From a virus, in IMG/VR virus record IMGVR_UViG_3300037470_000624, positions 1 through 59,446 of that record: a DNA stretch of 59,446 nucleotides. One strand, given 5' to 3'. Below, one piece after another: positions 1,029 to 46,645 of the stretch (positions are counted from its first letter, which is position 1; each line of letters begins with the position of its first letter). The notes beneath the pieces are model-generated. The model was not told the origin of the DNA. It saw only the letters and a program-made list of their open reading frames with translations, and ran no database searches. Position numbers and translations under genes: made by a program.

Positions 1029-1553
1029 TCAGCCAGGGGCGTCCTGCTGGAACGGCCACACATGCGTAGCCGACGACTCCGCCGGCTCGCCCTGCTCGCC
1101 CGTGACACGGCGACGCTCCCGCTCACTGCGCACGTGCTCCACCTCCGGAGGCGAGCTGACGGGATGCGGAAGACCGCGAGCCTGCTCCGTGACCACGATC
1201 GGATCCGCCGGGTGGATGTGGAACACCGGGGGAGCGGCCTTACCCGCCTCCATCATGCGAGCCCACAGCGACTCAGGGCCCGGCTCCGGCTCCGGCTCAA
1301 GAAGGTCCGGCCGCGGCGTGTGAGGCGCCGACCACGCCGCCACGTACGCCACCACCAGCGGCACCACGGCCAGCACGAACAGCTCCAGCGGCCCCGGGAC
1401 CGGGGCGTGCAGCGCGTACTCCTCCAGGAGCCACAGCACCAGGCCGGTGAGCGGCGCCGCGAGACCCGCGCCCGCCGCGCCGGCGATGACCTTCCCCTCG
1501 ACCGGCCGGCGGCGGCGGACCCGCAGCTCCTCGGTCATGACGGTGGCCATCAC
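1029..1553 (-). CDS. Holin-like membrane protein
   Basis: Two hydrophobic helices (GAAGAGLAAPLTGLVLWLL; LELFVLAVVPLVVAYVAAW). Start overlaps the endolysin stop (GTGATG). Last gene of the lysis block. Confidence 0.6.
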   Translation of the reverse strand: MMATVMTEELRVRRRRPVEGKVIAGAAGAGLAAPLTGLVLWLLEEYALHAPVPGPLELFVLAVVPLVVAYVAAWSAPHTPRPDLLEPEPEPGPESLWARMMEAGKAAPPVFHIHPADPIVVTEQARGLPHPVSSPPEVEHVRSERERRRVTGEQGEPAESSATHVWPFQQDAPG

Positions 1554-2407
1554 GGGGCCGCCGGCTCGTCGGCGTCCGGGTCCTCGGCATCCACGACGAC
1601 GCGGATGCGGCCCAGCAGCTCGGCCAGCGCGTCCGAATCGCTCGGGTCCAGCGCGCGGACCTCCTCCAGGAGTTCCAGGTGGCGCAGCGCCTGCTCCGCG
1701 TCCCGGGTCTTCTCCTCCGCGTCCCGTCGGACATCATCGCTCGCCGCGGCGAGCAGCGCGTCCAGCTTGGCCCGGGTCTCGGCCGCGAAGCGGCGGAACT
1801 CCACCAGCGTCGCGTTGATCTGCCCGCGTCCACCGCGGGCCAGGTACACCTCGGTCAGCGCGGTGCGGACGGTGGCGCCCGGGGCGTCCTTGTGCAGCGG
1901 CTCGTCGAGTGACATGTCGTCGTCCTCCAGCTCAGGTGTGGGCATGCCGGCGATGACCCAGTCACGCAGGTTGTCGCCGGGGCATTCGGTCCCCGTGTTG
2001 ACGAGGGAGTGGTACCGCTTGGCGAGGGACCGGCCGGCGAGCCTGTTCGCCTCCTGGTAGAGCCACAGAATTGACGCCTTGCCGGCCGCTGTGACGTCGG
2101 CGTTGCCCCCGATGAAACACACGCCGATGTTGGCCGTGTTGTTGTCCCTGGCGTGCGCCCCGATCGCCGCCCAGGAGTGGAGCCTGCCCAGGTACACCCG
2201 GCCGGCCCGGTCCACCAGGAAGTTGTACCCGATGTCGCCCCACCCCTTGCTCAGGTGGTAGTCCTGGATCGCCCGGACCCTCTGGTCCGGGGGACCAGCG
2301 GAGTAGTGGGTGATGAACCCAGTCCGCCTATCCCAGGTCGTCGTGTACACCTCCAGGCCCGTCTCCTGGGCGCCCCACTGCGCTCTCGTGATGATCGTTG
2401 GCGTCAT
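1550..2407 (-). CDS. Endolysin, N-acetylmuramoyl-L-alanine amidase (PGRP/amidase_2-like) with C-terminal coiled-coil region
   Basis: Motifs ITHYSAG, GWGDIGYNFLVDRAGRVY, GAHARDNNTANIGVCFIG and TECPGD are typical of amidase_2. Confidence 0.8.
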   Translation of the reverse strand: MTPTIITRAQWGAQETGLEVYTTTWDRRTGFITHYSAGPPDQRVRAIQDYHLSKGWGDIGYNFLVDRAGRVYLGRLHSWAAIGAHARDNNTANIGVCFIGGNADVTAAGKASILWLYQEANRLAGRSLAKRYHSLVNTGTECPGDNLRDWVIAGMPTPELEDDDMSLDEPLHKDAPGATVRTALTEVYLARGGRGQINATLVEFRRFAAETRAKLDALLAAASDDVRRDAEEKTRDAEQALRHLELLEEVRALDPSDSDALAELLGRIRVVVDAEDPDADEPAAP

Positions 2408-4207: not shown

Positions 4208-5317
4208 CTAGTTAGCGCCGACGTAGAAGTCCACGCCGTCGAGCGAGATGTACGTGTAGGTGCCGCCGGTCTGCGTGGTGACCACGCCCGCGGTCGAGAT
4301 GTCCAGCCGTACCAGCGTCTGCGGCGACCGCGCCGTGACGTCGAGGTGCACCGTCCGGAGCGGCCAGTGCCCGGCCGGTAGCGTCGCGATCGCCTGCCCC
4401 GCGGCCGGGGTGCCGTCGGTGTCGATGCGGCCCCGCAGGTCGATCTTGTCCCCGCCCACCGACAGGCGGGCCCGCGGCTCGTACTCCACGCCGCCGGCGT
4501 TGGGCAGGAACCCATTGCTGTAGGCGGTGAGCGCTTCCCACGAGCCAAACCCGCCGTACTGCTGTACGAGGTCCAGACCAATATCGCGCAGGCGGTACCC
4601 GAGGTTGGCCGTGCCCGCCCGGTAGATCTGGACGGTGTCGATGTCCTGCCGGGAGTAGATGATCGCGGCCGTCTTGTCATAGCCCAGCGCGGCCGGGTCC
4701 GGGGTGAGCACCCGCAGCGCGCCCACCTCGTCCAGCCAGAACGTCTCGGTGACGTCCCAGAACACGCGGAACACGTGCTCCGAGGTGACCGGGTCCGTAC
4801 CCGCAACGGTGTCAATGCGGATAGCGGTGGTGAGGTCGTCCGGGAGGTCCCACGTCTTCGACCCGGTGACGGTCTGGTCCGTGCCCAGGGTCATGAACGT
4901 GGCCACGTCCGCCGCGGCGGAGTAGAGCCCCCCGTCGGTGCCAAACACGACGGTGTTGTCCGCGTCGGTCGACAGGAACGCCGAGATGGTATTTCCCGCG
5001 TCGTCGTACTCCAGGCCGTCGCCGAGCGCGGCCCCGATGATGTCCTGGGTGGCCTCCGTCGACGGGGTGACGGTGCCGGCGATGACCACGCCGGAGATGA
5101 CGTACGGGTCGCCGAGCGCGCCGGTGCCCGTGATCGTCATGTCGATGGTCGCGGTATCGGCGACGGTGACCGCGGTGTCCCCGCCGATCGCCCCGGAGAA
5201 CGCAACCACGTAGGGCGCCTCAGCCGACCCTGATCCGGTTACGACGATCGGGTCCTCGCCGGTCACGATGCAGCTACAGCCACCACCGGACCCGCTACCG
5301 CAGCCGCACCGAGCCAT
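4208..5317 (-). CDS. Tail fibre/receptor-binding protein paralog B (369 aa)
   Basis: N-terminal ~130 aa are nearly identical to 5434..6627 (MARCGCG..GSGGGC.C, TITGTGALGDPYVISGVV, PSTEATQDIIGAALGDGLEYDDA). C-terminus is divergent. Confidence 0.65.
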   Translation of the reverse strand: MARCGCGSGSGGGCSCIVTGEDPIVVTGSGSAEAPYVVAFSGAIGGDTAVTVADTATIDMTITGTGALGDPYVISGVVIAGTVTPSTEATQDIIGAALGDGLEYDDAGNTISAFLSTDADNTVVFGTDGGLYSAAADVATFMTLGTDQTVTGSKTWDLPDDLTTAIRIDTVAGTDPVTSEHVFRVFWDVTETFWLDEVGALRVLTPDPAALGYDKTAAIIYSRQDIDTVQIYRAGTANLGYRLRDIGLDLVQQYGGFGSWEALTAYSNGFLPNAGGVEYEPRARLSVGGDKIDLRGRIDTDGTPAAGQAIATLPAGHWPLRTVHLDVTARSPQTLVRLDISTAGVVTTQTGGTYTYISLDGVDFYVGAN

Positions 5318-5337
5318 GAAGTCCTCCCAGGGGAGCA

Positions 5338-5371
5338 CCCGGCCCACAGCCAGCGGTCTACGCGCAGCATA
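5338..5371 (-). promoter_or_regulatory. Late-type signal L1 (-10-like TATGCT + conserved leader CCGCTGGCTGTGGGCCGGG)
   Basis: The 19-mer is identical at 6656, 21740 and 24972. It lies 20 nt upstream of ATG 5317. Confidence 0.55.
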
Positions 5372-5433: not shown

Positions 5434-6627
5434 CTAGGCGTCCCGGGTGATGCGGATACCGTCGAGTGAGATCGACAGGGCGCCGGCCGCGACCGCCACC
5501 GCGCACGACAGCTTGCCGTCCGCGTGGATCTTGACCGCGCCGTAGATGCCCGTGGCCGCTTCGAAGTGAGACGGGACCCTGGTGTCCCGCGCGGGGTTCA
5601 TCGGCTGCGCCAGCGCGTAGAGCAGGGTGGTGGTGGGCAGCGCGCTGGCCATGACGTCGCCCACCGCTGTCACGCCGCCAACGATGTCGATCTGCCCGCG
5701 GAACTCCACCGAGTTGCCGCCGGCGACCAGACGGCACTCCGGGGCCTCGTAGTCGGTGCCCGAGCCTGGGGCGTGCGCGGTGTACCGGCCGGCGACGGTG
5801 GGGGAGTCGATCGTGATCGCCGTCCACGCCGACTCGTGGGTGTTGCGGCCCCACACGTCGCCCTCCGCGGTGACGAACGCCCGCGGGACCGTGGATGCCT
5901 CGCCCTGGAGCGCCCATGAGGTCGCGTGGCCGGTTGTGCCCGCCCGGTTGAAGATCCGGAACGTGACTTCGGAGTTGGCCGCGCCCACGGAGTGCCGGAT
6001 GCGAGGCATACCCACCTCGTTGCACCAGAACACGTTTTGCAGCGTCGCGAAGTCCAGGCCGAACTCGACGACGAACATGTCCTCCGCGGCGCCGGTACGC
6101 GCCCCCCACCCTTGGACGATAAGGGGGAGGATCGCCTCGTCGTCGCCGTCGCCCTGCCGGAAGATCGACTGCGCGGTGAACATGTTGTCGATCGACAGCC
6201 GGGCGAAATCGGTTGTGTCGGTGAACCCGTACAGGCCGCCGTCGGTGCCGAAGACCAGGGCGTTGTCCGCGTCGGTCGAGATGAACGCAGAGATGGTGTT
6301 GAGCGCGTCGTCGTACTCCAGGCCGTCGCCCAGGGCCGCGCCGATGATGTCCTGTGTCGCCTCCGTCGAGGGGACGACTACCCCGTCCGGGACTACCCCG
6401 GAGATGACGTACGGGTCACCCAGCGCGCCGGTGCCCGTGATGGTGAGGTCCAGCGTCGCCGTGTCCAGGACGGTGACCCCGGTGTCCCCGCCCACGTTGC
6501 CGGTGAACGTGACCACGTACGGGGTCTCCGGCGCGCCCGTGCCGGTGACCTCGATATCCGCGCCGCCCGTGACGACGCAGTTGCACCCGCCGCCGCTACC
6601 GGTCCCGCCGCATCCGCACCGCGCCAT
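5434..6627 (-). CDS. Tail fibre/receptor-binding protein paralog A (397 aa)
   Basis: Shares its N-terminal module with 4208..5317. Has its own late-type signal L2. Confidence 0.65.
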   Translation of the reverse strand: MARCGCGGTGSGGGCNCVVTGGADIEVTGTGAPETPYVVTFTGNVGGDTGVTVLDTATLDLTITGTGALGDPYVISGVVPDGVVVPSTEATQDIIGAALGDGLEYDDALNTISAFISTDADNALVFGTDGGLYGFTDTTDFARLSIDNMFTAQSIFRQGDGDDEAILPLIVQGWGARTGAAEDMFVVEFGLDFATLQNVFWCNEVGMPRIRHSVGAANSEVTFRIFNRAGTTGHATSWALQGEASTVPRAFVTAEGDVWGRNTHESAWTAITIDSPTVAGRYTAHAPGSGTDYEAPECRLVAGGNSVEFRGQIDIVGGVTAVGDVMASALPTTTLLYALAQPMNPARDTRVPSHFEAATGIYGAVKIHADGKLSCAVAVAAGALSISLDGIRITRDA

Positions 6628-6655: not shown

Positions 6656-6690
6656 CCCGGCCCACAGCCAGCGGCGACACAGCGAGCCTA
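6656..6690 (-). promoter_or_regulatory. Late-type signal L2 (TAGGCT + CCGCTGGCTGTGGGCCGGG)
   Basis: TAGGCT overlaps the queC stop codon. The 19-mer ends 28 nt before ATG 6627. Confidence 0.55.
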
Positions 6691-7377
6691 CCGCCCGACG
6701 ACCGTAGGGCTGTCTGCCTCGTACACCGTGGGGTCCAGCGCGCCAGCCTGCCGGAAGGCCTCCGCCCGGCCGGCGCACGCCGCGCAGGTACCGCAGTGCT
6801 CGGCCCCGCCGCGGTAGCAGGACCAGGTGAGGTCAAGGGGGACGCCGAGCTCCAGTCCCCGGCGCACGACCCGCGCCTTGCCCCAGTCCATGAACGGGGC
6901 CTCTACCCGGACCATCGGGGCGGCGCCTTCGTTGGCCACCCGGACCAGGCGGTCGAGCTGGGTCACGAACTCCGGCCGGCAGTCGGGGAACACGTGGTGA
7001 TCACCCGCGTGCATGCCCAGGACCACTACCTCCGCGCTCCTGGCCACCGCGACGCCGGCGGCGACGTTGGCCAGGATCGCGTTGCGGTTGGGAACGATGA
7101 CGGCCGACGCCGGCGCCGTGCCCTGCTCGGCCGGGACGCCGATGGCGCGGTCGGTGAGCGCGCTGGTGAGCAGGCCGCCGAGGGCGGAGAGGTCCGCCAC
7201 GATGTGCTCCGCGTCGTAGAACTGGGCGATCCGGGCCGCCGCGGCCAGCTCCCGCTGGTGACGCTGGCCGTAGTTGATCGACACGGCCAGGGGCCGATAC
7301 CCGTAGTAGGCGTAATGGGCGAGCGCGACGGTGGAGTCCACGCCGCCTGATAGGACGATGACAGCCGTTCCGGTCAT
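6688..7377 (-). CDS. queC: 7-cyano-7-deazaguanine synthase QueC
   Basis: VLSGGVDSTV PP-loop, NRNAIL, and a C-terminal Cys cluster SCYRGGAEHCGTCAACAGR. ATGA overlap with the upstream ORF. Confidence 0.85.
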   Translation of the reverse strand: MTGTAVIVLSGGVDSTVALAHYAYYGYRPLAVSINYGQRHQRELAAAARIAQFYDAEHIVADLSALGGLLTSALTDRAIGVPAEQGTAPASAVIVPNRNAILANVAAGVAVARSAEVVVLGMHAGDHHVFPDCRPEFVTQLDRLVRVANEGAAPMVRVEAPFMDWGKARVVRRGLELGVPLDLTWSCYRGGAEHCGTCAACAGRAEAFRQAGALDPTVYEADSPTVVGR

Positions 7378-8120
7378 GGTGTGCTTCCTTCCGGGTGGGT
7401 AGGTGCAGGGTCGAACAGTTGACCCTGGCCGGTCGTCAGGGGGACGGGGGCCGGCCGGGTGGGATGCCGGCGACGCGGAGGGCGCCATATGCCGGCGTCG
7501 TATCCCCGCACCCACGCCAGGACCTGCGACAGGTTGGCGTCCGGCCCGTAGGTGAGGTACGTGCCGTCAACGGAGTCCACGCCCAGGGCGGCGAAACGGC
7601 GGTACCGGGCCTCACTGTTGACCCGGCCGACGTGCGTGCCCTTGCCTCGGGCCTGCGCCGCGCGGATGACGTCTGCGCCGGCGGGGCCGCATTTCCAGCC
7701 CGTCGTGCCTCCGATGAACGCGACGTCGAACTCCTGCCAGGGCAGGGCCTCGACGTACTCCTCGACCCCTGCCTGCATTACCAGCGCCGCGGGGTAGCCC
7801 AGCTCCCGGATGGCGGGCAGGAACGGGAGGGACCGCTCGATCGTGGCCGCCGCGTCCGATCCGTCCTCCGCCCCGGTGAACACGTCCGGAGCTGTAGCGA
7901 ACAGGGCCCGGCCGGCGTGCGCCCTGTTGTCCTCCAGCCACCGCAGCCACTCCACGTCACCCGGGTAGCCGTCGCCGAAACACCCGTTGTCGAAACCCAG
8001 AACGGGGTAGGTGTGCTCGATGCGGTTTCCTTGGCCAGGGGTGGTCATCATGCCCAGCGCGCCGGCCTCGATGGCAGCCCGGACGGGCGCGGTACACGGA
8101 GGGGTGAGGTAGACGGTCAC
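7374..8120 (-). CDS. TGT/DpdA-like TIM-barrel transglycosylase candidate (second copy); alternative TTG start at 8165
   Basis: LGFDNGCF, FATAPDVF, FDVAFIGGTTGWK, HVGRVNS and LGVDSVDGT resemble TGT-family substrate and nucleophile Asp motifs. Translationally coupled to queC. GGAGG lies 4 nt before GTG 8120. Confidence 0.5.
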   Translation of the reverse strand: MTVYLTPPCTAPVRAAIEAGALGMMTTPGQGNRIEHTYPVLGFDNGCFGDGYPGDVEWLRWLEDNRAHAGRALFATAPDVFTGAEDGSDAAATIERSLPFLPAIRELGYPAALVMQAGVEEYVEALPWQEFDVAFIGGTTGWKCGPAGADVIRAAQARGKGTHVGRVNSEARYRRFAALGVDSVDGTYLTYGPDANLSQVLAWVRGYDAGIWRPPRRRHPTRPAPVPLTTGQGQLFDPAPTHPEGSTP

Positions 8121-8262
8121 GTCGCCTCCCGCCGGCCGGGACAGCGGAACGGCCCCCAGCGGCAAACGGGGGGCCGTTCTGCCGGCCCCCTGCTCGTGGG
8201 GCGGGGGGACCGGAGGGCGTGTCCGGCGTGAACTACACCGGGGGCGACGTTACCTCAGGTCG

Positions 8263-8294
8263 GCCCGGGCCTGTATAGGAATACAGGCCCGGGT
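8263..8294 (-). terminator. Hairpin 6 nt after the stop of 8300..8584
   Basis: cccgggcctgtat / agga / atacaggcccggg (13 bp). Confidence 0.65.
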
Positions 8295-8299
8295 CAGCG

Positions 8300-8584
8300 T
8301 CAGGCCGGGACGTACGCGATGACGGCGTAGTTCTTGGCCTCCCAGAGGGCCCAGAGCGCGCGGGTCGTCTCGGGGCACTGGGGGCCGTTGGCGAGGCGGA
8401 CGGCCTGCTCTGCGAACGGTCGGGAGACCTCGGCGAGCATGCCGGTTAGGTGTGCCCACGCGAACCGCGTTGCGACTGCTCGGACGCTGGGGATGACGTG
8501 CCCGCCGAGCTGTGCGGCGATCGCGTCGGCGGTGCCTGGTGCGGACTCGGGCTGCTCGCCGGGTGCAGGGTTGGTTTCGGTCAT
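8300..8584 (-). CDS. Hypothetical protein (94 aa), insulated single-gene unit
   Basis: ATG after GGAG. Promoter-like island upstream and hairpin downstream. Confidence 0.6.
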   Translation of the reverse strand: MTETNPAPGEQPESAPGTADAIAAQLGGHVIPSVRAVATRFAWAHLTGMLAEVSRPFAEQAVRLANGPQCPETTRALWALWEAKNYAVIAYVPA

Positions 8585-8662: not shown

Positions 8663-8776
8663 TCACCCAGGGCCGAGCCCCCGCGCCGCCGCCCAGAAAC
8701 ACCCCGCCACGGCGGCCAGCAGCACCACGTACCCGACCGCGGCGCCCACCCACCACGCCGCGTCCCGCCACCTCAC
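8663..8776 (-). CDS. Small single-pass membrane protein (37 aa)
   Basis: GTG in a GTGA overlap with stop 8773. VRWRDAAWWVGAAVGYVVLLAAVAGCFWAAARGLGPG. Confidence 0.4.
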   Translation of the reverse strand: MRWRDAAWWVGAAVGYVVLLAAVAGCFWAAARGLGPG

Positions 8777-9333
8777 AAAGTCTCCACTTGCCAAGGCGAC
8801 AACGCCTGAACGATCGCCAGGAACAGCACATCCTTGTGCCTCTGCGGCTCCGGCAAGTCGTCGTAGGCCACCAGACACGGATGGGTGCGCGCGTCCGCGT
8901 CCTTCACCGGCCCCCACGACCAGCCCGAGTCCCGCTTGTCCTGGCACCACGCCTCGTGCAGCTCCCGCGGCGTAGCGCCCTCCCGGGCCCGCACAACGCC
9001 AGCGGTCGCCGAGGCATGCTGCCAGTGCGGCGCCGCCTCCCACGGCACCGACACGGCCGGGTCGCCCTGGACGATCTGGAGCGCCCGGTTCGCCTCGTGG
9101 ACCACGTGTGCAACCTGCTCGTCGGTGTACAGGTTCCCTACCGGCTCCACGGTGATGCCCTCCAGGTCGTACTCCTCGCCCAGCATGTCGATAACCCGCT
9201 GGGCCTGCTCGGCCAGGTGCGCCGGGACGTTGAGCACGTTCGGTCGGCGGCCCGTGTTGCGGTAGTAGGTCTGGGCCAGCGTCCGCAAGCTGTCCGCGAC
9301 CCCCTCGTCCGTGTCGCTGACCGCCCGAGTCAT
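8773..9333 (-). CDS. RyR-domain-like protein (186 aa)
   Basis: C-terminal HEAWCQDKRDSGWSWGPVKDADARTHPCLVAYDDLPEPQRHKD matches my recollection of the RyR-domain pattern. ATGA overlap at 9330-9333. Confidence 0.5.
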   Translation of the reverse strand: MTRAVSDTDEGVADSLRTLAQTYYRNTGRRPNVLNVPAHLAEQAQRVIDMLGEEYDLEGITVEPVGNLYTDEQVAHVVHEANRALQIVQGDPAVSVPWEAAPHWQHASATAGVVRAREGATPRELHEAWCQDKRDSGWSWGPVKDADARTHPCLVAYDDLPEPQRHKDVLFLAIVQALSPWQVETL

Positions 9334-9809
9334 CCGACCGCGACCGTTACCTCGTCGACGACCGTCCCGCCGTCGAGCAGGGTGAGCAGCGCGCTGGTGA
9401 ACGCGACGTCGACCACGACAGCGGTCCACTGCTCGTTGGGGCAGGTGGGGGTCGAGGGCATCGGCGCCGGGGAGTCGGTCGTGACGGTGAACAGCGACTG
9501 GCCGTTGCGCGGTGTGGCCAGCGGGCCCGTGGTGCCGTCCACGGGCAGCGTCGTGTCCTGGCCGGGTGCCCGGTTACCAGCAGGGTTGACGCACTCCACC
9601 TCAGCCACGCCCTGCGCCTCGATCAGCACCTCGAAGGTGGTGCCGTCGAGCCCGGCCGCCTTGCCCGAGCACTCCACCTGCAGGCCGATGTCCGAGCACA
9701 CCGGGGCCTGCGCCCCGCCTGCGATGAAGTGACCGGACGACGCCGACGCGGGGGTCGGGACCAGACACGCGGCGAGCACCAGCATCGCCACCAGCAGTAA
9801 ACGCTTCAC
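9330..9809 (-). CDS. Secreted lipoprotein (159 aa)
   Basis: Signal peptide MKRLLLVAMLVLAAC with an L-A-A-C lipobox. GGAGGA SD before GTG 9809. Confidence 0.65.
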   Translation of the reverse strand: MKRLLLVAMLVLAACLVPTPASASSGHFIAGGAQAPVCSDIGLQVECSGKAAGLDGTTFEVLIEAQGVAEVECVNPAGNRAPGQDTTLPVDGTTGPLATPRNGQSLFTVTTDSPAPMPSTPTCPNEQWTAVVVDVAFTSALLTLLDGGTVVDEVTVAVG

Positions 9810-10306: not shown

Positions 10307-12865
10307 CTACTCCACCGCCTGGCCGTAGTCGTTGAGCGGGACGAACGTGGGCCCTACCTGCTCGTTACCCGGTGTCCACGACACCCGTAGCTGCTCCAGC
10401 CGCATGACTTGGAGCCGCGTCGAGCAGTTGCCCCGGACGTGCAGCTCCGCCCACGCCCCCGGTACGAGCTCCGACATGATGACCGGCGCTGTCTTCTTGA
10501 GCGACCCTGCCTGGCCAGTGTCCACCACGACCGGCGGCCGGCCGTTGACCCTCGACTTGGCGCCCCGTACGAGCTGCGTCTCGTTGATCGTGCCTTCCGC
10601 CCGGTCCAACTGTTCCAGCAGGCCGTACCGGGCCGACACGGCCCCGTAGGTGCCCGTGACGCCGTCCCCGGCCAGCGTCGCCCGGGTGGTGACCTTGTCC
10701 GTGCGCACCAGCGGCAGGTCGCCGGTGAAATGCGAGTCGGTGAGGCGGCGGATGTTCGACAGCGCGGCGGCGGCGCCGAACAGGACGATGCGGCGGCCTA
10801 CCGCAGTGAAGTTGAGGCCCAGCCCCGCTAGCTGCTTCAGATCGGACAGCGCGTAGGTGGAGTCTTCGGCGACGATGCGGTCCACCGCTATCCCGGTGGC
10901 CACCTCCAGGATGTGCAGCCGGATGTTCGGGTCCTCCTCCTGTAGGGAGGCCCGCAGCATGCGGCCCGCCGTGTTGGCCAGGTCCCGGTCGAGGCCCGTC
11001 GTGTCATACGGCGCGCAGATACGACGCGACAGCCACGCCGTGACGTCCTTCGCCTCCAGGGTGATGGTGCGTTCAGCGCGGGAGTCCACCACTCTGGTGA
11101 TCGGGCCTTCCCAGACCAGTTCGCCGTTGCGGAACAGGCCCAGCTCGTGCGACCACGGCTCGACGTCGGCCAGCTCCGAGCACCTGTTACCCGCGACCGG
11201 GATGACGACCCGCGCGTCCGAGGTGCCGTCCAGCACCCGGCCCCACTCCACAGCCGACAGGACACCGGGGGCGGCCACCTGCGGCGTGCCCCCCTTGCCG
11301 TAGATGACCGCGGCCATACCGCCGGCCGGCGACGGGGTGCCGAGGGTCTTGCGCTGCGCCGGCGCCGCGCCGACGTTGATCCTGGGGACCAGCGAATCGG
11401 TCTCGGTGAACAGGTCCGCGCCGGACAGCGGCTCGTACGCCCGGATGCGGTAGTAGTTGCGGACGCCCGGGACGCGGTCCACGTCGGTGCGTGTGACGTC
11501 CTGGTCGGCGTCGCCCGGCAGGCCTGTGCCCGCGGCGATCGCCGTCCACGTCGCCCCGTCGATCGACCGTTCCACGTCGGCGTCGCCGCGGGACAGCACG
11601 TCGTCGTAGGACGCGTCCACGGGCAGAACGTTCGTGTTCGCGCTGGACAGGATCGAGCGGATACCGATGCGGCCGGCCACGTTGATCGACGCGTCCGCGA
11701 CGGTGACGTTCCAGACCGCCGGCTCGGCTCCGGACGCCAGCCACACCCGGCCCTTGAGATCCCCCCCGATGATTTGGAGCCGCGCCCCGAACCGGGTACC
11801 CGCGGCGTGGACCAGGCCCGTGGCAAGGTCCGACGCGAGCAGGGTCTCCACTCCCCCGACCCGCTTTCGCAGGGTGAGGTTGACCGCGGCCCCGGTGGTG
11901 AACTCGACCCGCAGCAGGTACACGTTGTTGCTGTCGATGAACCGGCCGGCGAGGTTCAGGAAGTGGGACCCGCCGACGGCCAGCTTGTCCGTCGCGACCG
12001 TCGCCGAGAAGTCCAGGTCAACGGCCTGCATCGCCGCGGTGGACCAGCGGGACACGTTGATACTGGTCTGCGAGTGGACGGCCTGCGAGCCGTTCGTCAG
12101 GAAGTTCGCCGCCGACCCGCCCGTCCGCAACCACGTGTGACCCGAGTCGCTATCGCCCCAGTCCGAGGCCACTACCCGGGCGAACTGGTCCCACACCCCC
12201 GGCACGGGGCCGCGGATGGTGACCTTGGACGAGGTCGAGGTGAGCCGCAGGTACACGGCCCGGATGACCGCCGCGGCGTATGCGGCGAACGTCGCCGTGC
12301 GCGCCCCGGAGTTACGGACCGCGGCCGAGGTGTCCCCCGCGGGGAAGAACGCCTGGCGTTGCGCCAGGGACAGCTCAAGCTGGAGCCCGGCCAGGTTCGC
12401 GTTTTTGTTGCAGATGTTGGACGTGTCGGTGCCCGCAAGCTCCGACGATGCCTGTGTGACGGTGAACCCCGCCGCGGTGAGCTCGTCCTCTACCCGGTCA
12501 CGCAGGCCAGCGTCCAGGCCGCCAATGAGGGTTTCCGGGACACCCGCGGTGCCGGTGTAGCCGTGCCAGGAGATTGTGCGCTGCATCGCCGCTGTCTGCG
12601 CCACGCACATCGGCTCGTCGAACAGGGAGCTTGTGATGTGAAGGTCGAAGTTGCCGGACGGTTTGATCCCGGCGAACTCGTAGTGACCCATCCGGCCGCC
12701 GGCGACTTCCCTCGCTATCTCCCCCGACCCCGGCTCGATGCCCCCGCCGTGGATGGCGATCGAGTTCCACGACGCTCCTACCGGCAGCGTCGCGGTGCGC
12801 GTGTAGTCGACGCCTTCGGTCTGCTCCGCGGCGAGCGCCGCATACGACAGGTAGGGGGGCGGCAT
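10307..12865 (-). CDS. Large minor tail protein (852 aa) with N-terminal poly-gamma-glutamate hydrolase-like (PghP/DUF867) domain
   Basis: N-terminus has IAIHGGGIEPGSGEIA..HYEFAG..LHITSSLFDEP. Middle is lectin/jelly-roll-like. C-terminus has ELGLFRNGELVWEGPI, typical of actinophage minor tail proteins. Confidence 0.7.
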   Translation of the reverse strand: MPPPYLSYAALAAEQTEGVDYTRTATLPVGASWNSIAIHGGGIEPGSGEIAREVAGGRMGHYEFAGIKPSGNFDLHITSSLFDEPMCVAQTAAMQRTISWHGYTGTAGVPETLIGGLDAGLRDRVEDELTAAGFTVTQASSELAGTDTSNICNKNANLAGLQLELSLAQRQAFFPAGDTSAAVRNSGARTATFAAYAAAVIRAVYLRLTSTSSKVTIRGPVPGVWDQFARVVASDWGDSDSGHTWLRTGGSAANFLTNGSQAVHSQTSINVSRWSTAAMQAVDLDFSATVATDKLAVGGSHFLNLAGRFIDSNNVYLLRVEFTTGAAVNLTLRKRVGGVETLLASDLATGLVHAAGTRFGARLQIIGGDLKGRVWLASGAEPAVWNVTVADASINVAGRIGIRSILSSANTNVLPVDASYDDVLSRGDADVERSIDGATWTAIAAGTGLPGDADQDVTRTDVDRVPGVRNYYRIRAYEPLSGADLFTETDSLVPRINVGAAPAQRKTLGTPSPAGGMAAVIYGKGGTPQVAAPGVLSAVEWGRVLDGTSDARVVIPVAGNRCSELADVEPWSHELGLFRNGELVWEGPITRVVDSRAERTITLEAKDVTAWLSRRICAPYDTTGLDRDLANTAGRMLRASLQEEDPNIRLHILEVATGIAVDRIVAEDSTYALSDLKQLAGLGLNFTAVGRRIVLFGAAAALSNIRRLTDSHFTGDLPLVRTDKVTTRATLAGDGVTGTYGAVSARYGLLEQLDRAEGTINETQLVRGAKSRVNGRPPVVVDTGQAGSLKKTAPVIMSELVPGAWAELHVRGNCSTRLQVMRLEQLRVSWTPGNEQVGPTFVPLNDYGQAVE

Positions 12866-34064: not shown

Positions 34065-35606
34065 TCAGCCGTATTGGCGCGGAGGCAGCGTTCTGGAGAT
34101 TTGGATACCGGCCACTCCGGACGCCCCGGGCGGCGCCGACTTGGAGTACCCGGCCGCGTTGGTCGCGGTCGAGTCCCGCACCGTCGGGCCGGCGAGCGCC
34201 AGGACCTCGTACACGTGCGCGTCGAGGTCGTCCGGGGAGTCCTCGGCGGGGTCGCCGGTGAACGTGGTCATGATCGACTCCAGCGCGGCCCACTTCGCTG
34301 GTGGGCCGACGTGGTGGACGCGGCGCTGCTCGTAGAGCTGCGACACCGGCTCGGCCCGCAGGATCTTGCCCTTACGTGCCACCACTTTGCGGACCGGGAT
34401 GAGGTCGTCCACCGTGCGCAACAGGGCCGGGATGTAGTCCCCGCCGTTGTTCGTCTCCACGATGACGTAATTGCAGTCCCACGCGCCGAACGTGGACGCA
34501 ACCCGCTTCATCGCCGCCTCCGGGGTGGCCCGCCACGCCTCCGACAGCAGGCCGTACACGTGACGCAGGCCGTCCGCTTCGTTGACCCGCACCCCGCCGA
34601 CGCCGATGCCGTACTGGTCACTGGTCTCCGACGAGGTGACCGCGGGGTCCACCGCGCACACCCGCTTGTCCAGGGTCGGCAGGTCGGAGTACGGCAGGCG
34701 GAATCCGTCCCATTCGAACATCGACGGGGTCCACAGCGCGCCCTCGACCTCCTCCAGCAGCTCCCCGGCGAGTTCCTGGCGGCCCAGGCGCGTGCCCTCG
34801 TAGGACGCCATCAGCTCGGCGATGGCCGCCTCGGACAGGTTCGCCCGGTTGTCCAGGGTGTGACCTCGGGTGATGACGACCGACGGGTCAGTCTTGCCCC
34901 GCTCGACCAGCTTCTTGATGTGCGGTAGGGCCTTCGGGGTGGTGGTGATGACGACGCGAGGGTCCGGGGCCTCCCGGAGGCAGAACCACAGCATGTCCAT
35001 GCACGCTTGCGCGGTCTTGCGTGGCCACGCGGCGTACTCGTCGCACCAGACCCCGTCAAAGGCGTAGCCGCGGAACACGTCCGGGTCCTCCGCGGAGAAC
35101 GCCCGGATGATCGACCCGTTGTGCAGCCGGATGAGGACCTGCCCACCGGAACGCTTGTACTGGGCCACCTGCTCCGGGGGGATGACCGCGTTTAGCCCGG
35201 CCCGCGGCGCGTCGTAACAGATGGCCTGCACCTCCCGGTGAGTCTTGGCCACCACCGCGTAATGCCCCCGCGCTTTCTGCCCCGCCCACGTGCGGACCGT
35301 CTCCGCTCCGGTGCGGGTCTTGCCGTAGCCGCGGCCGGCGAGGATGAGCCACGTTCGGTACCCGACGCCCGGCTCACGCTGCGCCGGCCGGGAGTGCCGC
35401 GGCCAGTCGTACCGCTGGCGCTCGATCGCAGCGATGTGCTGGTCCGCCTCAGCGAGGAGCTGAGCGTCGGTCATGCGCCGCGGGTCGACCAGTCGCAGGT
35501 GACGCGGGCCGGACCGGGAGCGTTGCCTAGGGGGGGACCACGGGACCGCGACGTCGACACCGCCCACGAGGGTGGTCTCGTTCGCTACAGCCGGGTAGGT
35601 GCTCAC
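34065..35606 (-). CDS. terL: Terminase large subunit
   Basis: Walker A LAGRGYGKT and Walker B GVWCDE. C-terminal nuclease-like half. 513 aa. Confidence 0.85.
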   Translation of the reverse strand: MSTYPAVANETTLVGGVDVAVPWSPPRQRSRSGPRHLRLVDPRRMTDAQLLAEADQHIAAIERQRYDWPRHSRPAQREPGVGYRTWLILAGRGYGKTRTGAETVRTWAGQKARGHYAVVAKTHREVQAICYDAPRAGLNAVIPPEQVAQYKRSGGQVLIRLHNGSIIRAFSAEDPDVFRGYAFDGVWCDEYAAWPRKTAQACMDMLWFCLREAPDPRVVITTTPKALPHIKKLVERGKTDPSVVITRGHTLDNRANLSEAAIAELMASYEGTRLGRQELAGELLEEVEGALWTPSMFEWDGFRLPYSDLPTLDKRVCAVDPAVTSSETSDQYGIGVGGVRVNEADGLRHVYGLLSEAWRATPEAAMKRVASTFGAWDCNYVIVETNNGGDYIPALLRTVDDLIPVRKVVARKGKILRAEPVSQLYEQRRVHHVGPPAKWAALESIMTTFTGDPAEDSPDDLDAHVYEVLALAGPTVRDSTATNAAGYSKSAPPGASGVAGIQISRTLPPRQYG

Positions 35607-42277: not shown

Positions 42278-42886
42278 TTAGGCCAGCGCCATGAACTCCC
42301 CACGCGTCGCCGCGTCCGACCGGAACTTGCCCACCAGATGCGACGACACCATCTCCGCCCCCTCCGCCCGAGCCCCCCGCAACGTCATGCACGTGTGAGC
42401 GCTCGTGATGACACACCCCGCGGCCACAACGTCCATGTGATCGTCGATGGCCTCCACCACCTGCTGGCCCAGACGCTCCTGCACCTGCGGCCGGGCCGCG
42501 TACCCCCGGACCAGACGGGCCAGCTTCGACAGCCCCACAATCGGCGCGTCCACCGCGGGGATGTACCCCACCGTGGCCCGGCCCGTGAACGCCAGCACGT
42601 GATGCTCACACACAGCCGTGAACGGGACCCGTCGGACGACGATCAGGCCCGGGTCGCGCGTCTCCGGAGGGAACTGCACGTTCAGGTGGACCGCAGGGTC
42701 GGCGTGCAGCCCCTCCGTCAGCTCCGCCAGCGCGCGGACCATACGCCGCGGCGTCGCCACCAGATGCCCCACCGACGTATCGATGCCCAGCGCCTCCAGC
42801 ATGGTTTGCGCGGCCAGCTCGGCCGCGTCGAGGTCCACACCCGCCGCCCGGCCGTTGAGCCCGGCCCGTGACTGCACCGTCGTCAT
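42278..42886 (-). CDS. folE: GTP cyclohydrolase I (FolE)
   Basis: TPRRMVRAL, FTAVCEHHVL, VGYIP, SKLARLV and TSAHTCMTLRG motifs. Confidence 0.85.
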   Translation of the reverse strand: MTTVQSRAGLNGRAAGVDLDAAELAAQTMLEALGIDTSVGHLVATPRRMVRALAELTEGLHADPAVHLNVQFPPETRDPGLIVVRRVPFTAVCEHHVLAFTGRATVGYIPAVDAPIVGLSKLARLVRGYAARPQVQERLGQQVVEAIDDHMDVVAAGCVITSAHTCMTLRGARAEGAEMVSSHLVGKFRSDAATRGEFMALA

Positions 42887-43632
42887 TACCGCCCCTTGTC
42901 CTCATCCGGCCACAGGAACACGTGCATGCGCTGCGTGAGGTTCCACCCCCGCGCCAACACCGGATCCGCCAGCGCAGAGCCGCGGGCCATCAACACCTCC
43001 GGGGTGACGCCCTCCGGCATGATCCACACGTGGTGGGCCCGGATACCCGCCGCGGTGACGACGCCCTGCACGTGGTCGAGGTCGTCGTCGTCGCGGACTA
43101 CGAACTTGAACACCGCGCGGCCTGTCTCCGCCAGCTCCCGCAGCACGTGCCGCCGGATGCGGTCCGCCGGCGTGCCGCCCGCGTGCGCCAGCTTCGGCGA
43201 GACGTTCCACCGCGTGACCGTGTTGAGCGATGGGACCGTCGGCAGCACGGTGCCGTTCGTCTCCACCTCCACGTCGCCCAGGTCCGCAAGCCCCTGGACC
43301 AGCGGCGTCCACCCCGGGGTGCGCTGGTGCAGCAGCGGCTCCCCGCCCGTGACCACCGTCAGCGGCGCGCGGGACTCCGCCACCCTGGCGAGCACCGAGT
43401 TGACCGGCACCCGCGTCAGCTCTTTGCGCAGGTCGAACCGGGACGCGTCCCACGTGTACGGGGTGTCGCACCACGTGCATGACAGGTTGCACCCGCCGAG
43501 GCGGACGAACATCGCCTGGCGGCCCGTCGACGGTCCCTCACCTTGGAACGTCGGGCCGAACACTTCCGCGACGACCACCGACATGCCCGCGCCGGGCCCT
43601 TTGACGAACCCCGGCTCCAGTACGTCCGTCAC
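42886..43632 (-). CDS. queE: 7-carboxy-7-deazaguanine synthase QueE (radical SAM)
   Basis: FQGEGPSTGRQAMFVRLGGCNLSCTWCDTPYTW and TGGEPLL. GTGA overlap with queD. Confidence 0.85.
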   Translation of the reverse strand: MTDVLEPGFVKGPGAGMSVVVAEVFGPTFQGEGPSTGRQAMFVRLGGCNLSCTWCDTPYTWDASRFDLRKELTRVPVNSVLARVAESRAPLTVVTGGEPLLHQRTPGWTPLVQGLADLGDVEVETNGTVLPTVPSLNTVTRWNVSPKLAHAGGTPADRIRRHVLRELAETGRAVFKFVVRDDDDLDHVQGVVTAAGIRAHHVWIMPEGVTPEVLMARGSALADPVLARGWNLTQRMHVFLWPDEDKGR

Positions 43633-44114
43633 CGGTCCGCCTCCCAGATCGCCGTGTTGACGCGAGTTTCCCGGACCGACACCCGGGTGACCGTAGCGCC
43701 GTGCTCCGACAGCAGGCCCGTGTACAGCAGGCGTGCGGCCACGCGGGACAGCAGCGTCGCCACGTTCTCCACCGTCGGCCACGCCAGACCCGCGGCGAGG
43801 GAACCGCCAGGCCACTCCACGGGGCCGGCCGCGAACAGGTACAGCTTGCAGCCGGCCTCCTGTAGGGGCGTGACCAGCTCGTCGTCCGCGCCGAGCATCG
43901 TGCCGTGGTCGAGGTTCGTGTCGATCCAGTCCCGCAGCAGCGCCTTGTACGCGCCGAACTCCACCACCGTGCCCTGCGGCGACAGCTTCGGCGTCGACAC
44001 CGTGACCTTGGTCCACCACGAGTGGCCGTGCAAGCTGGCGCACTTACCGCCGAGGTGGGGGAGGCGGTGCGCGGTCTCGAAGTTGTGCGCCACCCGAACT
44101 GAGTACCTGGTCAC
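43629..44114 (-). CDS. queD: 6-carboxy-5,6,7,8-tetrahydropterin synthase QueD
   Basis: FETAHRLPHLGGKCASLHGHSW, LDHGTML, PTVENVA and VSVRETRVNTA. Confidence 0.85.
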   Translation of the reverse strand: MTRYSVRVAHNFETAHRLPHLGGKCASLHGHSWWTKVTVSTPKLSPQGTVVEFGAYKALLRDWIDTNLDHGTMLGADDELVTPLQEAGCKLYLFAAGPVEWPGGSLAAGLAWPTVENVATLLSRVAARLLYTGLLSEHGATVTRVSVRETRVNTAIWEADR

Positions 44115-44521
44115 GTCGTGCGCTCCACCGTGTACCGGGTGACGCCGGCGTCGTGACCGATGCTGTCCTCGACGCCCTCGACGTCGAGGTGGACCGCGCG
44201 GAGCAGGTAGTCCCCGCCCCACTTCTCCCACTCCGCGGCTACGTACCCGTCGAGGTGGGCGAAGAGGCGGCGGGTCGCCTCCTCATTCGTCGCGTTGCGG
44301 AAGGGGTGCTCGGTGCCGGTCATCTCGAATACCCGTGCGCGGAGCGCGTCGTTCGTGGCCTTGAATGAGGGGAACCCCCGCCCGCCGCTCGGGTGCTCGT
44401 ACACCACCGATACCGCGGCCGTGTGGCAATGCGACTTGAGTCCCATTTCCTGATTCTGGTTACAGAAAAAGATGGGAATGGGGCCGAGGGTGACCGTTTC
44501 TCTAAGTGGCTGCTCCGTCAT
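44111..44521 (-). CDS. Unassigned ORF (136 aa), possibly a divergent QueD/PTPS-like T-fold
   Basis: FFCNQNQEMGLKSHCHTAAVSVVYE loosely parallels F-x-AAH...LHGHS-x-x-V. ATGA and GTGA coupling between dpdA and queD. Confidence 0.35.
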   Translation of the reverse strand: MTEQPLRETVTLGPIPIFFCNQNQEMGLKSHCHTAAVSVVYEHPSGGRGFPSFKATNDALRARVFEMTGTEHPFRNATNEEATRRLFAHLDGYVAAEWEKWGGDYLLRAVHLDVEGVEDSIGHDAGVTRYTVERTT

Positions 44522-45465
44522 GCTTTCTCGTCCTTCCGCGCTGGCTCCAGCGGGCCTTCGAGTTGAGACCGCGGTGGGAATGCTGCCAGACCCATCGCGT
44601 CGGTGCGCGCCATGACGTGCTGCCATACCGTGTTCGCGTCCTGGACCGCGTCCGAGTAGACCACCTGGGCGGATCGGCGGCCGGTGGGGGAGTCCGGTGG
44701 GGCCTGCTGGTCGTACAGGAATCGGGGTCCCAGGTCACCTACGCGCCGCGAGGCGACGTGCGCGATCTTGACGTTGGGGAACCGGAGAGGGTTGAGCCAC
44801 GACGACGAGTCACCCGAGTCCATCGGCACCGACAGGCACCACTCGTTGGGCGTGAGTCCGAGCATGTGGACCCACAGATCCGGGTACCGGCGGCGCCGTT
44901 CCCACATGGTGTGGAGCATCCGGACCCGCACGGGCTGGGTGGACAGTGACACGTTGCCCCAGCACACCCGGTCGTACTGCTCGGCCAGCTCGTCGAAGTA
45001 GTCCCAGCCGTCAGACAGCGGATGGTAAACCGGGATGGGGCGGAGCCCTTCCTGTTCGAATTCCCGCCGGACCCTGCGTTTCGTTTCCCGGCCGCCCTGG
45101 TCCAGCTCGACATAGCCCCAGAGGCGTTCGCCGTACCGCGACACCAGATAGACGTACCGGTCCCGCAATTGGCGGTACCCGGGAATGTCTTCCGGGGGCA
45201 GAGTCAGGGCGTCGTAGAAGCTGATGCCCGCGGCTTTGCGGTGGGTGTTCGTCAGGGTGAAGATTCCCGAGTCCAGCAGGACCGCGTGCCCCGCGTCCAG
45301 CAGCTCCACCAGGAACGTCTCCCCGGCCGGGCTCATCAGTTGATCCACCGGGATGAGCATGTGACGCGGGTACCGCTGGGCCCAGCCCGCCGCGAAGTAG
45401 AGGTGCCGGTCAGCCGGGTCGAACGCCCCGCCTCCGGTGACGTACCGGGGCGGCGCCGCCGTCAC
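44518..45465 (-). CDS. dpdA: DpdA-like DNA 7-deazaguanine transglycosylase (TGT superfamily)
   Basis: VLLDSGIFTL, WGYVELDQGG, VHMLGLTP and PMDSGDSSSW resemble phage DpdA/TGT motifs. Operon context. Confidence 0.6.
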   Translation of the reverse strand: MTAAPPRYVTGGGAFDPADRHLYFAAGWAQRYPRHMLIPVDQLMSPAGETFLVELLDAGHAVLLDSGIFTLTNTHRKAAGISFYDALTLPPEDIPGYRQLRDRYVYLVSRYGERLWGYVELDQGGRETKRRVRREFEQEGLRPIPVYHPLSDGWDYFDELAEQYDRVCWGNVSLSTQPVRVRMLHTMWERRRRYPDLWVHMLGLTPNEWCLSVPMDSGDSSSWLNPLRFPNVKIAHVASRRVGDLGPRFLYDQQAPPDSPTGRRSAQVVYSDAVQDANTVWQHVMARTDAMGLAAFPPRSQLEGPLEPARKDEKA

Positions 45466-45707
45466 GAGCTGCCCCGCGCGGCCGCGGCCGCGTCACGGCG
45501 CCACTTGTACAGGTTGAGGCAGTACACCCAGAGGTACGCCGCCGCCGCGGCGTAGAACCCCCACTGAGCCGTGACCGTCGCGTACGCGAACCAAAGGACC
45601 TGGGCCGCGGCGCCGACAGCCCAGCCCCACCACGAGCCGCGGCCGGCCAGCCACAGCCCGAGCACGCCCACGCCGGCGAGCAGCCAGGACCACCACCAGG
45701 CGCTCAC
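45462..45707 (-). CDS. Trp-rich 3-TM membrane protein (81 aa), PnuC-half-like
   Basis: WLAGRGSWWGWAVGAAAQVLWFAY..GFYAAAAAYLWVYCLNLYKWRR. GTGA overlaps on both sides. Confidence 0.45.
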   Translation of the reverse strand: MSAWWWSWLLAGVGVLGLWLAGRGSWWGWAVGAAAQVLWFAYATVTAQWGFYAAAAAYLWVYCLNLYKWRRDAAAAARGSS

Positions 45708-46645
45708 CTGCCCCCCTTACACACCGGGGTCTCCCCGGTGATCCTCGCCCACTTCGTGATCAGCCACCCGGCCAGGTACAGGTTCGGCTGCACCATGACG
45801 ACCGGATGGTCCTGGGCCTCCTCTGCGAACGGGGCCAGCGGCGTCGGGTAGGGCCAGAACAGGGTGTCCGGGGTGGCCAGCAGCGGCACCCACTGCGGCC
45901 AGCCCTCGTGGACGTCGCCGCACACCAGGCGGTGCCGGCCCAGGAACCAAACCTGGCCGGGCTCCGGCATGTAGTCCGGCTCTCCGACGGTGACCCCGGC
46001 CAGCGCCAACAGCTCGCCCTTCGGCACCGGGTCGTTGCCGTCCGGGTCCGCCTCCGCCGAGCCGAGGTCGCCCGCGGCGGCCAGTTCCTCTTGGAGGCCG
46101 GCGAGGTCGGTGTCGTCGAAACCGGCCGCTGACATGAGGTCCGGGTCGTCGGCCAGGTCCTCCAGCATGTCCACGAGCTGCCCAGTGTCCCACCCGCCGC
46201 GTTCGGTGTACCGGTTGAGCGCGACCAGCAGGCCCTCCGCCTCTTTGTCCGACCGCGACGCCCAGCCGCGTTGGACGGGGGTGAGCCACTGCCCGCCGTC
46301 GGTGGTGGCAAGTACACCGTCCGGCGGGTCCTCGCCCGCGTCGCGCATGCCCTGCAGGGCCTCCCGCCGTCCGTGGCCACCGATAAGGCGGCCCGTGCGC
46401 TCGTCGAGGATGACCGCGTCCGCCATGCCGAACCGTTCGATCGCGCGGCGGATGCCGTCGAGGTCGTGCCCCTTCGGGTTGCGGGGCGCCGCGGGCAGGT
46501 CGTCAACGTCCATGTACTCGGTCCACCGCGGCGGGCGGCCCACGACCGGGCTGTCCGGTTCGTCCCCGGCCTCGAGTTGTGGGGCGGCCGGATCCGGCTC
46601 GGTGAACGTCGCCCGCGGCGCCGACAGCTTCGGCTTGGCCGTCAC
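45704..46645 (-). CDS. ParB/Srx-domain protein fused to a truncated, degenerate DNA-methyltransferase-like segment
   Basis: NPKGHDLDGIRRAIERFG..ILDERTGRLIGGHGRREAL (ParB N-domain). GRHRLVCGD, then WPYPTP where a DPPY-type motif would be expected. Confidence 0.65.
   Translation of the reverse strand: MTAKPKLSAPRATFTEPDPAAPQLEAGDEPDSPVVGRPPRWTEYMDVDDLPAAPRNPKGHDLDGIRRAIERFGMADAVILDERTGRLIGGHGRREALQGMRDAGEDPPDGVLATTDGGQWLTPVQRGWASRSDKEAEGLLVALNRYTERGGWDTGQLVDMLEDLADDPDLMSAAGFDDTDLAGLQEELAAAGDLGSAEADPDGNDPVPKGELLALAGVTVGEPDYMPEPGQVWFLGRHRLVCGDVHEGWPQWVPLLATPDTLFWPYPTPLAPFAEEAQDHPVVMVQPNLYLAGWLITKWARITGETPVCKGGR
46551..46577 (-). repeat. Dispersed 27-mer, exact copy (inside the ParB-like gene)
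   Basis: ctgtccggttcgtccccggcctcgagt is identical to 19310..19336. Confidence 0.9.

Follow-up and report, generated by a model that had tools for sequence, protein, structure and literature searches.

The 59,446-nucleotide (nt) stretch of viral DNA analyzed here (IMG/VR record IMGVR_UViG_3300037470_000624, hereafter the window) carries in its tail-lysis region a 248-amino acid (aa) open reading frame, ORF-A, whose stop codon overlaps the start of queC, the gene for 7-cyano-7-deazaguanine (preQ0) synthase. On balance, the evidence favors the view that ORF-A encodes a minimal DNA guanine/7-deazaguanine transglycosylase, which would be fed preQ0 by the coupled QueC, may be recruited by the sliding clamp and would complement, in site, timing or access, the ParB-assisted transglycosylase DpdA encoded by a 315-aa ORF elsewhere in the window. 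An initial annotation had read ORF-A as a relative of tRNA-guanine transglycosylase (TGT) and DpdA and had counted two divergent candidates of this type in the genome. Profile comparisons bear out both points. The features central to the argument are as follows.

7374..8120, minus strand: ORF-A, 248 aa, predicted minimal DpdA-like TIM-barrel protein; the barrel comprises residues 1-205.
7377..7505, minus strand: C-terminal tail of ORF-A, residues 206-248, modeled by AlphaFold2 (AF2) at low confidence, with a predicted local distance difference test score (pLDDT) below 50 for residues 216-234.
7413..7427, minus strand: Q232-G-Q-L-F236, the window copy of the family Q-x-x-L-F/W motif, located beyond a 22-aa insertion.
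8125..8130, minus strand: Shine-Dalgarno-like GGGAGG, 4 nt 5' of the ORF-A GTG, as read from the sequence.
6688..7377, minus strand: queC, 229 aa (PF06508, TIGR00364, phrog_1550).

The relationship of ORF-A to DpdA was probed with a family profile of 150 representatives and a smaller profile of 41 close homologs. The reference was an alignment of 91 canonical phage DpdA sequences that includes gp87 of Arthrobacter phage Sonali, mycobacteriophage DpdAs and the DpdA of phage CAjan, whose deletion abolishes dPreQ0 (PMC6884629). For related loci, tblastn with the 315-aa DpdA was too insensitive and was replaced by jackhmmer seeded with Sonali gp87. The ORF-A family profile matched the canonical alignment by hhalign with a probability of 95.6% (E 1.1e-8) over 133 columns extending from strand 3 to strand 8. 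The paired residues are collinear (ORF-A/canonical: D44/D37, D79/D73, Q116/His, G137-G138/GG, H163/H155 and D185/D174). For the 315-aa ORF the probability against this alignment was 99.5% (E 5e-23). Since both ORFs match it, both are taken to be DpdA relatives, the 315-aa protein a close one and ORF-A a remote one. When the family hidden Markov model (HMM) was run with filters off over 13,697 six-frame ORFs, the best matches outside the family were the canonical DpdAs of locus L031 and of Sonali, with DNGCF...WL...APDVVGD placed opposite DSGAF...WL...ALDVIGD. Among 38,880 PHROGs, phrog_887 ('queuine tRNA-ribosyltransferase'), the PHROG of the 315-aa ORF, was matched by 6 of the 150 representatives (best E 1.2e-3) and is, besides the family's own PHROG, the only one matched by more than three of them; at normal thresholds PHROG 887 leaves ORF-A itself undetected. 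Judged by these comparisons, ORF-A is homologous to canonical phage DpdA, remotely but significantly.

The AF2 model of ORF-A (pLDDT 87, predicted template modeling score 0.81) is a TIM barrel of eight strands alternating with helices. Foldseek searches of the PDB returned only TIM barrels and placed bacterial DpdA (7ui4) at rank 20 (E 3.9e-5). The TIM barrel is also the fold of TGT, so the initial annotation withstood the fold check that it had set. Among viral models (BFVD), phage proteins annotated as DpdA or TGT occupied ranks 2, 8, 17 and 37. In a control search of the PDB with the model of the 315-aa ORF (pLDDT 88), TGT structures ranked first. TGT and DpdA enzymes are marked by three invariant aspartates, an acid/base after strand 3, a base-recognition residue after strand 4 and a nucleophile after strand 8 (PMC10164549). 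Candidate catalytic residues of ORF-A are D44 (DNGCF), D79 (APDV), Q116, G137-G138 (in a loop following strand 6), H163 and D185 (SVDGT). Conservation of D44, D79 and D185 reaches 90% or more across the 150 representatives, and their counterparts D37, D73 and D174 are invariant or nearly so in the canonical phage family. From their positions, D44 (after strand 3) is the predicted general acid/base, D79 (after strand 4) the predicted base-recognizing residue and D185 (after strand 8) the predicted nucleophile. The canonical D37, D73 and D174 would, judged by their motifs, be D95, D130 and D256 of the Salmonella enzyme. All of the stretches that the initial annotation had called TGT-like are present (GFDNGCF, residues 42-48; APDVF, 77-81; FIGGTTGWK, 135-143; HVGRVNS, 163-169; LGVDSVDGT, 179-187). 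All of them sit at positions that the family keeps unchanged or nearly so, and they are the same motifs that hhalign aligned to the DpdA family; the aspartate of SVDGT, within the stretch described there as nucleophile-like, is the one opposite D174.

ORF-A reads from 8120 to 7374, starting with GTG and stopping with TGA at 7376..7374. A TTG at 8165 was rejected as an alternative start, as homologs begin at the GTG position. The possibility that ORF-A is a spurious frame of a high-GC genome (71% G+C) was ruled out by its G+C content at third codon positions (GC3, 0.85), by its conservation and by the ratio of synonymous to non-synonymous changes. Comparison with L084, a 97%-identical metagenomic contig that shares the ORF-A/queC arrangement, gave 13 synonymous codon changes against 3 non-synonymous ones, a pattern indicating that ORF-A is under purifying selection. 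ORF-A matches PHROG 15826 ('unknown function') at 5e-60. A word-indexed search found 816 homologs, and an exhaustive search found 3,232 clusters at 50% identity. Family members are typically ∼205 aa long. The additional length of the window copy includes a 22-aa Arg/Pro-rich insertion in the tail, unseen in other members of the alignment, and its C-terminal peptide is ...TTGQGQLFDPAP.

Gene context was scored in 80 IMG/VR viral loci (nearly all 60-74% G+C) and 80 bacterial-genome loci (mostly from actinomycetes), and the family is linked throughout to 7-deazaguanine supply genes. A gene for a YhhQ-type queuosine-precursor transporter (Vut_1/COG1738) lies beside the homolog in 58 of the viral and 36 of the bacterial-genome loci, and in 79 of 97 cases it immediately precedes the homolog, in the same orientation. 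All five transporters tested scored above threshold against Pfam PF02592. Their sole NCBIfam matches were queuosine-precursor transporter models, with higher scores than the control protein, the 'preQ0 transporter' of CAjan. Aoka gp38 (L001 4140..4667), Majeke gp53 (L003 4487..5044) and the neighbor in ReqiPine5 (L021 9471..10001), presently annotated as 'membrane protein' or 'hypothetical', are divergent YhhQ/COG1738 transporters. Transporter and ORF-A homolog form a conserved predicted two-gene operon. QueC, together with QueE or QueD, is found beside the homolog in 8 of the 80 viral loci. Transporter and QueC were never found together in the viral loci (0/80; hypergeometric P 1.1e-5, uncorrected for relatedness). 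The family thus adjoins a source of 7-deazaguanine, be it an importer or the last biosynthetic enzyme, as would be expected of an enzyme that consumes the base. Some of its members are fused to QueF, a QueC fragment, an N6/N4 DNA methylase or a PD-(D/E)XK-like nuclease region (a weak match); the fusion members are L064 10001..12592, P0321, P0262 and P0296. Other members match PHROGs for HNH endonuclease, endonuclease VII and Lar-like domains. The ORF-A homolog is the sole DpdA-like gene in L020, L059, L074 and the complete Aoka genome, and in the last no other Que or DpdA gene was found.

Within the window, queC is itself a confident assignment. Against Pfam PF06508 it scores 197 bits (3e-58), far above the cut-off of 22, and it also exceeds the cut-off of the NCBIfam equivalog TIGR00364 (177.8 against 150.3 bits). 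It is the only copy. As had been reported initially, its start codon (ATG, 7377..7375) and the ORF-A stop share an ATGA at 7374..7377. By virtue of this overlap, queC is predicted to be translationally coupled to ORF-A. The remainder of the pathway and the canonical DpdA lie far away in a cluster spanning 42278..46645.

42278..42886, minus strand: FolE, GTP cyclohydrolase I (PF01227, 1.6e-51).
42886..44043, minus strand: 385-aa ORF containing QueE (Radical_SAM, Fer4_12; phrog_2076, 2e-58).
43629..44231, minus strand: QueD-like 6-carboxytetrahydropterin synthase (TIGR03367, 1.3e-16, under the equivalog cut-off).
44518..45465, minus strand: canonical phage DpdA, 315 aa (phrog_887, 1e-17).
45704..46645, minus strand: ParB-like protein (ParB-like PHROGs, 3e-25; motif GHGRREA, GxxRxxA).

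The QueE-like radical SAM domain comprises residues 153-381 of its ORF, which overlaps QueD by ∼400 nt; because the domain begins only at residue 153, QueE translation probably starts inside the ORF, near 43590. A 171-aa ORF at 44111..44626 failed the GC3 filter, had no matches and was rejected as a pathway gene. As it is probably no gene, ∼286 nt between DpdA and QueD are apparently non-coding.

The displacement of queC by ∼35 kb from the rest of the pathway, noted in the initial annotation, was confirmed (the gap to FolE is 34,901 nt). Its suggestion that each transglycosylase candidate is tied to half of a split pathway holds in part. QueC does accompany ORF-A, but 'half' is an overstatement since only queC travels with it. 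In locus L031 a single contiguous cluster, ParB-DpdA-QueD-QueE-FolE-QueC-ORF-A, is unsplit, and we therefore regard the window as holding the same module with the ORF-A/queC pair moved to the tail-lysis region. In other genomes, family members lie among early or DNA-metabolism genes. In Sonali the canonical and ORF-A-type genes are 3 kb apart and both are already annotated. The co-occurrence of the two enzymes in three lineages (the window, Sonali and L031) argues that they are not redundant. A ParB-like gene directly precedes canonical DpdA in all three (Sonali, L002 8401..9881; L031, 3..1568). Bacterial DpdA needs DpdB, a ParB-like ATPase (PMC10164549), and the phage ParB-DpdA adjacency recalls it; the pair in the window resembles the bacterial DpdA-DpdB pair, with the ParB-like protein in a position analogous to DpdB. 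This pairing has seldom been noted for phage DpdAs.

Many family members carry a short motif, Q-x-x-[LIM]-[FWY] or Q-x-x-L-x-[LFW], at a fixed place 5-6 residues past the barrel. It was found in 57 of 148 family tails against 6.9 expected in shuffled tails (∼8-fold), and in 26 of the 41 close homologs; none of 40 members of the canonical DpdA family had it. The β-clamp-binding consensus is QLxLF (PMC4549789), and mycobacterial ImuB has QLPLWG (PMC10421592). The tail motif resembles such sequences, and may bind the β-clamp.

We infer that ORF-A is catalytic, acts on DNA, uses preQ0 as its base, binds the clamp and divides labor with canonical DpdA. In the proposed scheme, the distant FolE, QueD and QueE would make 7-carboxy-7-deazaguanine, which QueC would convert to preQ0. 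ORF-A would swap guanine in phage DNA for preQ0 by the double-displacement reaction of TGT and DpdA, and its disordered tail (Q-G-Q-L-F) would tether it to the host β sliding clamp, so that it acts on replicating or clamp-loaded DNA. Canonical DpdA would work with its ParB-like (DpdB-like) neighbor instead, and the two enzymes would differ in target sites, DNA engagement or timing.

Several observations weigh against this scheme. Neither ORF-A nor any of the 150 representatives matches Pfam TGT (PF01702) or DUF6610 (PF20314, the DpdA4 family) at E values up to 1, and NCBIfam and PDB sequence searches with ORF-A and the 41- and 150-sequence profiles gave no match; the Pfam, NCBIfam and PDB searches yielded only noise, such as Prod 1, PilN and weak EAL matches. 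Direct comparison of the ORF-A family with the family of the window's 315-aa DpdA found nothing (hhalign, 0.2% both times), in keeping with the earlier remark that the two ORFs could not be aligned by eye; the diverse canonical alignment was therefore needed as an intermediate. The top PDB matches of the ORF-A model were PdxJ, ribulose-phosphate epimerase (RPE) and TrpA, not TGTs. The zinc site CxCx2Cx22H is absent from the family, which has one conserved cysteine only (C47), although CAjan DpdA likewise lacks a CxCxxC motif, so this site marks the bacterial DpdA and TGT branches and not all phage DpdAs. The insertion between strand 8 and helix 8 (Ins8), which binds DNA in bacterial DpdA, is also absent, and the protein ends ∼20 residues past strand 8. 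Q116 replaces the conserved strand-5 histidine (His181 in Salmonella DpdA), a residue that DpdA2 lacks as well (PMC6884629), and the hydrophobic stacking leucine after strand 7 stands opposite Gly/Arg in the ORF-A family. The barrel of the window copy is acidic (isoelectric point 4.8). The tail motif is missing from many members, for example those of L031, L074 and ReqiPine5. Mycobacteriophage Orion, with a singleton DpdA of the long type, has no deazaguanine in its DNA (PMC6884629). Finally, the co-occurrence in three lineages indicates that ORF-A is not a simple replacement of canonical DpdA.

Some of these points would also be accommodated if ORF-A were a small-molecule enzyme of 7-deazapurine salvage, acting at the nucleoside or nucleotide level and feeding canonical DpdA or a polymerase; the base would be exchanged or attached on a nucleoside or nucleotide, or released from an imported nucleoside. 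PdxJ, RPE and TrpA are phosphate-binding small-molecule barrels, and the lack of DNA-binding insertions and of a zinc subdomain, the acidic barrel, the tight pairing of the family gene with an importer and its coexistence with a full-length canonical DpdA gene in three cases (the window, Sonali and L031) all fit such a role. We nevertheless judge it unlikely. DNA transglycosylases are the only proteins to which ORF-A shows significant homology, and the aspartate of the covalent nucleophile is kept. The clamp-like tail, and the occurrence of members fused to a DNA methylase or to nucleases, point to DNA. Moreover, Aoka and most transporter-linked loci have no other insertion enzyme. Mycobacteria have neither TGT nor queuosine-pathway genes (PMC6884629), so in such hosts the free base would be without a user.

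A tRNA-guanine transglycosylase acting on the tRNAs of hosts that lack their own TGT would agree with the name given to family members by SEA-PHAGES annotators, with the absence of TGT from mycobacterial hosts (PMC6884629) and with the strand-5 glutamine, which appears to correspond to that of E. coli TGT (IIQGS) rather than to the DpdA histidine. This role is improbable: the family has neither a zinc subdomain nor C-terminal tRNA-binding elements, the closest relatives that could be detected are phage DpdAs, which act on DNA, no tRNA genes were found in the window, and the clamp-like motif and the fusions to DNA enzymes again point elsewhere. Least probable of all is an accessory or partner subunit that tunes the specificity or efficiency of canonical DpdA, as QTRT2 pairs with QTRT1; TGT enzymes are active as dimers (PMC6884629) and the two genes are contiguous in L031 and both present in Sonali and the window, but all catalytic residues of ORF-A are conserved under purifying selection and for most family members the genome or locus contains no canonical DpdA.

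The transglycosylase assignment places ORF-A beside several characterized systems. With phage DpdA1 (9g/CAjan type) and its actinophage relatives (Sonali gp87, Knocker and Funsized) it shares the TIM barrel, the collinear elements D-S/N-G-x-F, x-D-V-x-G-D, I-G-G, H-x-G and the D nucleophile, and a linkage to FolE/QueD/QueE/QueC and a preQ0 transporter, one of which CAjan encodes. ORF-A is ∼100 residues shorter, with nothing after strand 8/helix 8, has Gln for the strand-5 His and D-G-T for D-S-S-S-W after the nucleophile, and differs from canonical DpdAs in carrying the C-terminal Q-x-x-L-F/W tail and in having no ParB-like neighbor. Bacterial DpdA/DpdB (Salmonella Montevideo; 7UI4; PMC10164549) has the same fold, the three catalytic aspartates and the proposed double-displacement mechanism; ORF-A lacks its CxCx2Cx22H zinc site, Ins1, Ins2, Ins8 and DpdB-type ATPase partner, and an equivalent of Phe265 could not be located. 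E. coli Tgt has in common with ORF-A the D-S-G-G-F motif, the GG-loop, the F-D-C nucleophile logic and Gln after strand 5. At 375 aa, it has a zinc subdomain, tRNA-binding insertions and a PF01702 match, all of which ORF-A lacks.

The divergent subfamilies DpdA2 (Vibrio phage nt-1), DpdA3 (Cellulophaga phage phiST CGPG_00065) and DpdA4 (DUF6610, HVTV-1) were found by gene context and remote homology. Like ORF-A, the nt-1 DpdA2 (YP_008125322; L170 32912..35098) lies immediately upstream of queC. It is unrelated to ORF-A (family HMM with filters off, -2.2 bits and no motif alignment), and adjacency of a transglycosylase gene to queC thus recurs in independent DpdA lineages. Like ORF-A, the phiST DpdA3 is short (259 aa), and it contains an L-D-N-G motif. 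Its comparison with the ORF-A family gave 0.1% by hhalign, a low-power result given that the canonical DpdA profile reaches only 2.3%. No Cellulophaga or Campylobacter phage was found by tblastn of ORF-A.

Family members that already bear a DpdA-like name are genes of the SEA-PHAGES collection, Aoka gp40, Sonali gp81 and Majeke gp54 (cluster P mycobacteriophages), which belong with PHROG 15826 to the ORF-A family at 44-55% identity. These copies are ∼205 aa long and lie in the early/DNA-metabolism arm, most of them after a YhhQ-like 'membrane protein' gene. The window copy is unlike them in its R/P-rich insertion, its coupling to queC and its location in the tail-lysis region. The initial annotation had placed the pair in the tail-fiber region. 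The ORF-A/queC pair is flanked upstream by a minor tail protein gene and downstream by two paralogous fiber-like ORFs and then an endolysin gene. Nearly all genes of the window with coding-type GC3 are on the minus strand. The neighboring features are as follows.

10307..12865, minus strand: minor tail protein, 852 aa, with an N-terminal poly-gamma-glutamate hydrolase domain (PF05908, 4.6e-51).
8253..8304, no strand assigned: imperfect inverted repeat with 24-nt arms, 79% complementary, with a GC-rich core and no T-run.
5434..6627 and 4208..5347, minus strand: tandem fiber-like paralogs with a Cys/Gly-rich start, MARCGCG...GGGC.
1550..2407: endolysin, downstream of ORF-A/queC.

The minor tail protein, whose middle region is phosphodiesterase-like, may be a tail-borne depolymerase for poly-gamma-glutamate capsule. 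Between its gene and ORF-A lies a gene for a RyR-domain protein (8773..9429, minus strand; PF02026, 7e-11), which is kept in L084. The hairpin at 8253..8304 overlaps the stop of an upstream 94-aa ORF (8300..8584) and extends downstream of it; a 180-nt gap separates that ORF from ORF-A. The hairpin is terminator-like, and may set ORF-A and queC apart as a unit of their own. Simple scans for sigma-70 promoters and intrinsic terminators found neither in the gap at 8121..8299, and gave nothing of relevance in the surroundings of the pair. The fiber-like paralogs are ∼80% identical over their N-terminal ∼135 residues and have diverged C termini; neither has a Pfam match. This divergence has the appearance of that between alternative receptor-binding proteins. 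No relative turned up when the region was compared by megablast with 50,697 phage records, and none of the records shares more than 43% identity with the terminase (34065..35606). An actinomycete host is suggested by the homologs of the window DpdA that genomes of Kitasatospora, Amycolatopsis and Pseudonocardia contain.

The homology call is not new, as members of the family already bear the SEA-PHAGES label 'DpdA-like tRNA-guanine transglycosylase'. The published classification of DpdA ends at bDpdA and DpdA1-4, and our literature search found no published or experimental description of the short family, the transporter operon, the exclusivity of QueC or the tail motif. We raise, tentatively and with more doubt than attaches to the function of ORF-A itself, the possibility that these proteins form an undescribed 'mini-DpdA' subfamily of at least 3,232 clusters (50% identity), mostly from actinobacterial phages and prophages. 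Such proteins would hypermodify DNA with 7-deazaguanines, in most phages with a salvaged base obtained via the YhhQ importer and some while riding the clamp, and in the window one would serve as a second, mechanistically distinct enzyme beside ParB-assisted DpdA. If so, the importer operon would allow DNA modification in hosts without a deazaguanine pathway, such as mycobacteria, and the clamp motif would couple modification to replication, a new mode for base exchange.

Phages whose DNA carries 7-deazaguanines are protected against restriction enzymes, and the signature enzyme proposed for this modification is DpdA (PMC10516641). With a widespread minimal DpdA-like family escaping the standard domain models, the frequency of such modification would be underestimated, especially in actinophages. 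The 205-residue barrel would mark the minimal catalytic core of the TGT superfamily. The window phage, Sonali and L031 offer natural systems in which to ask why two enzymes are kept, whether for site specificity, timing or substrate. The nearly obligate pairing with an importer suggests that phage DNA modification could rely on metabolites scavenged from the environment, and dependence on a scavenged precursor could explain why phages grown in the laboratory look unmodified.

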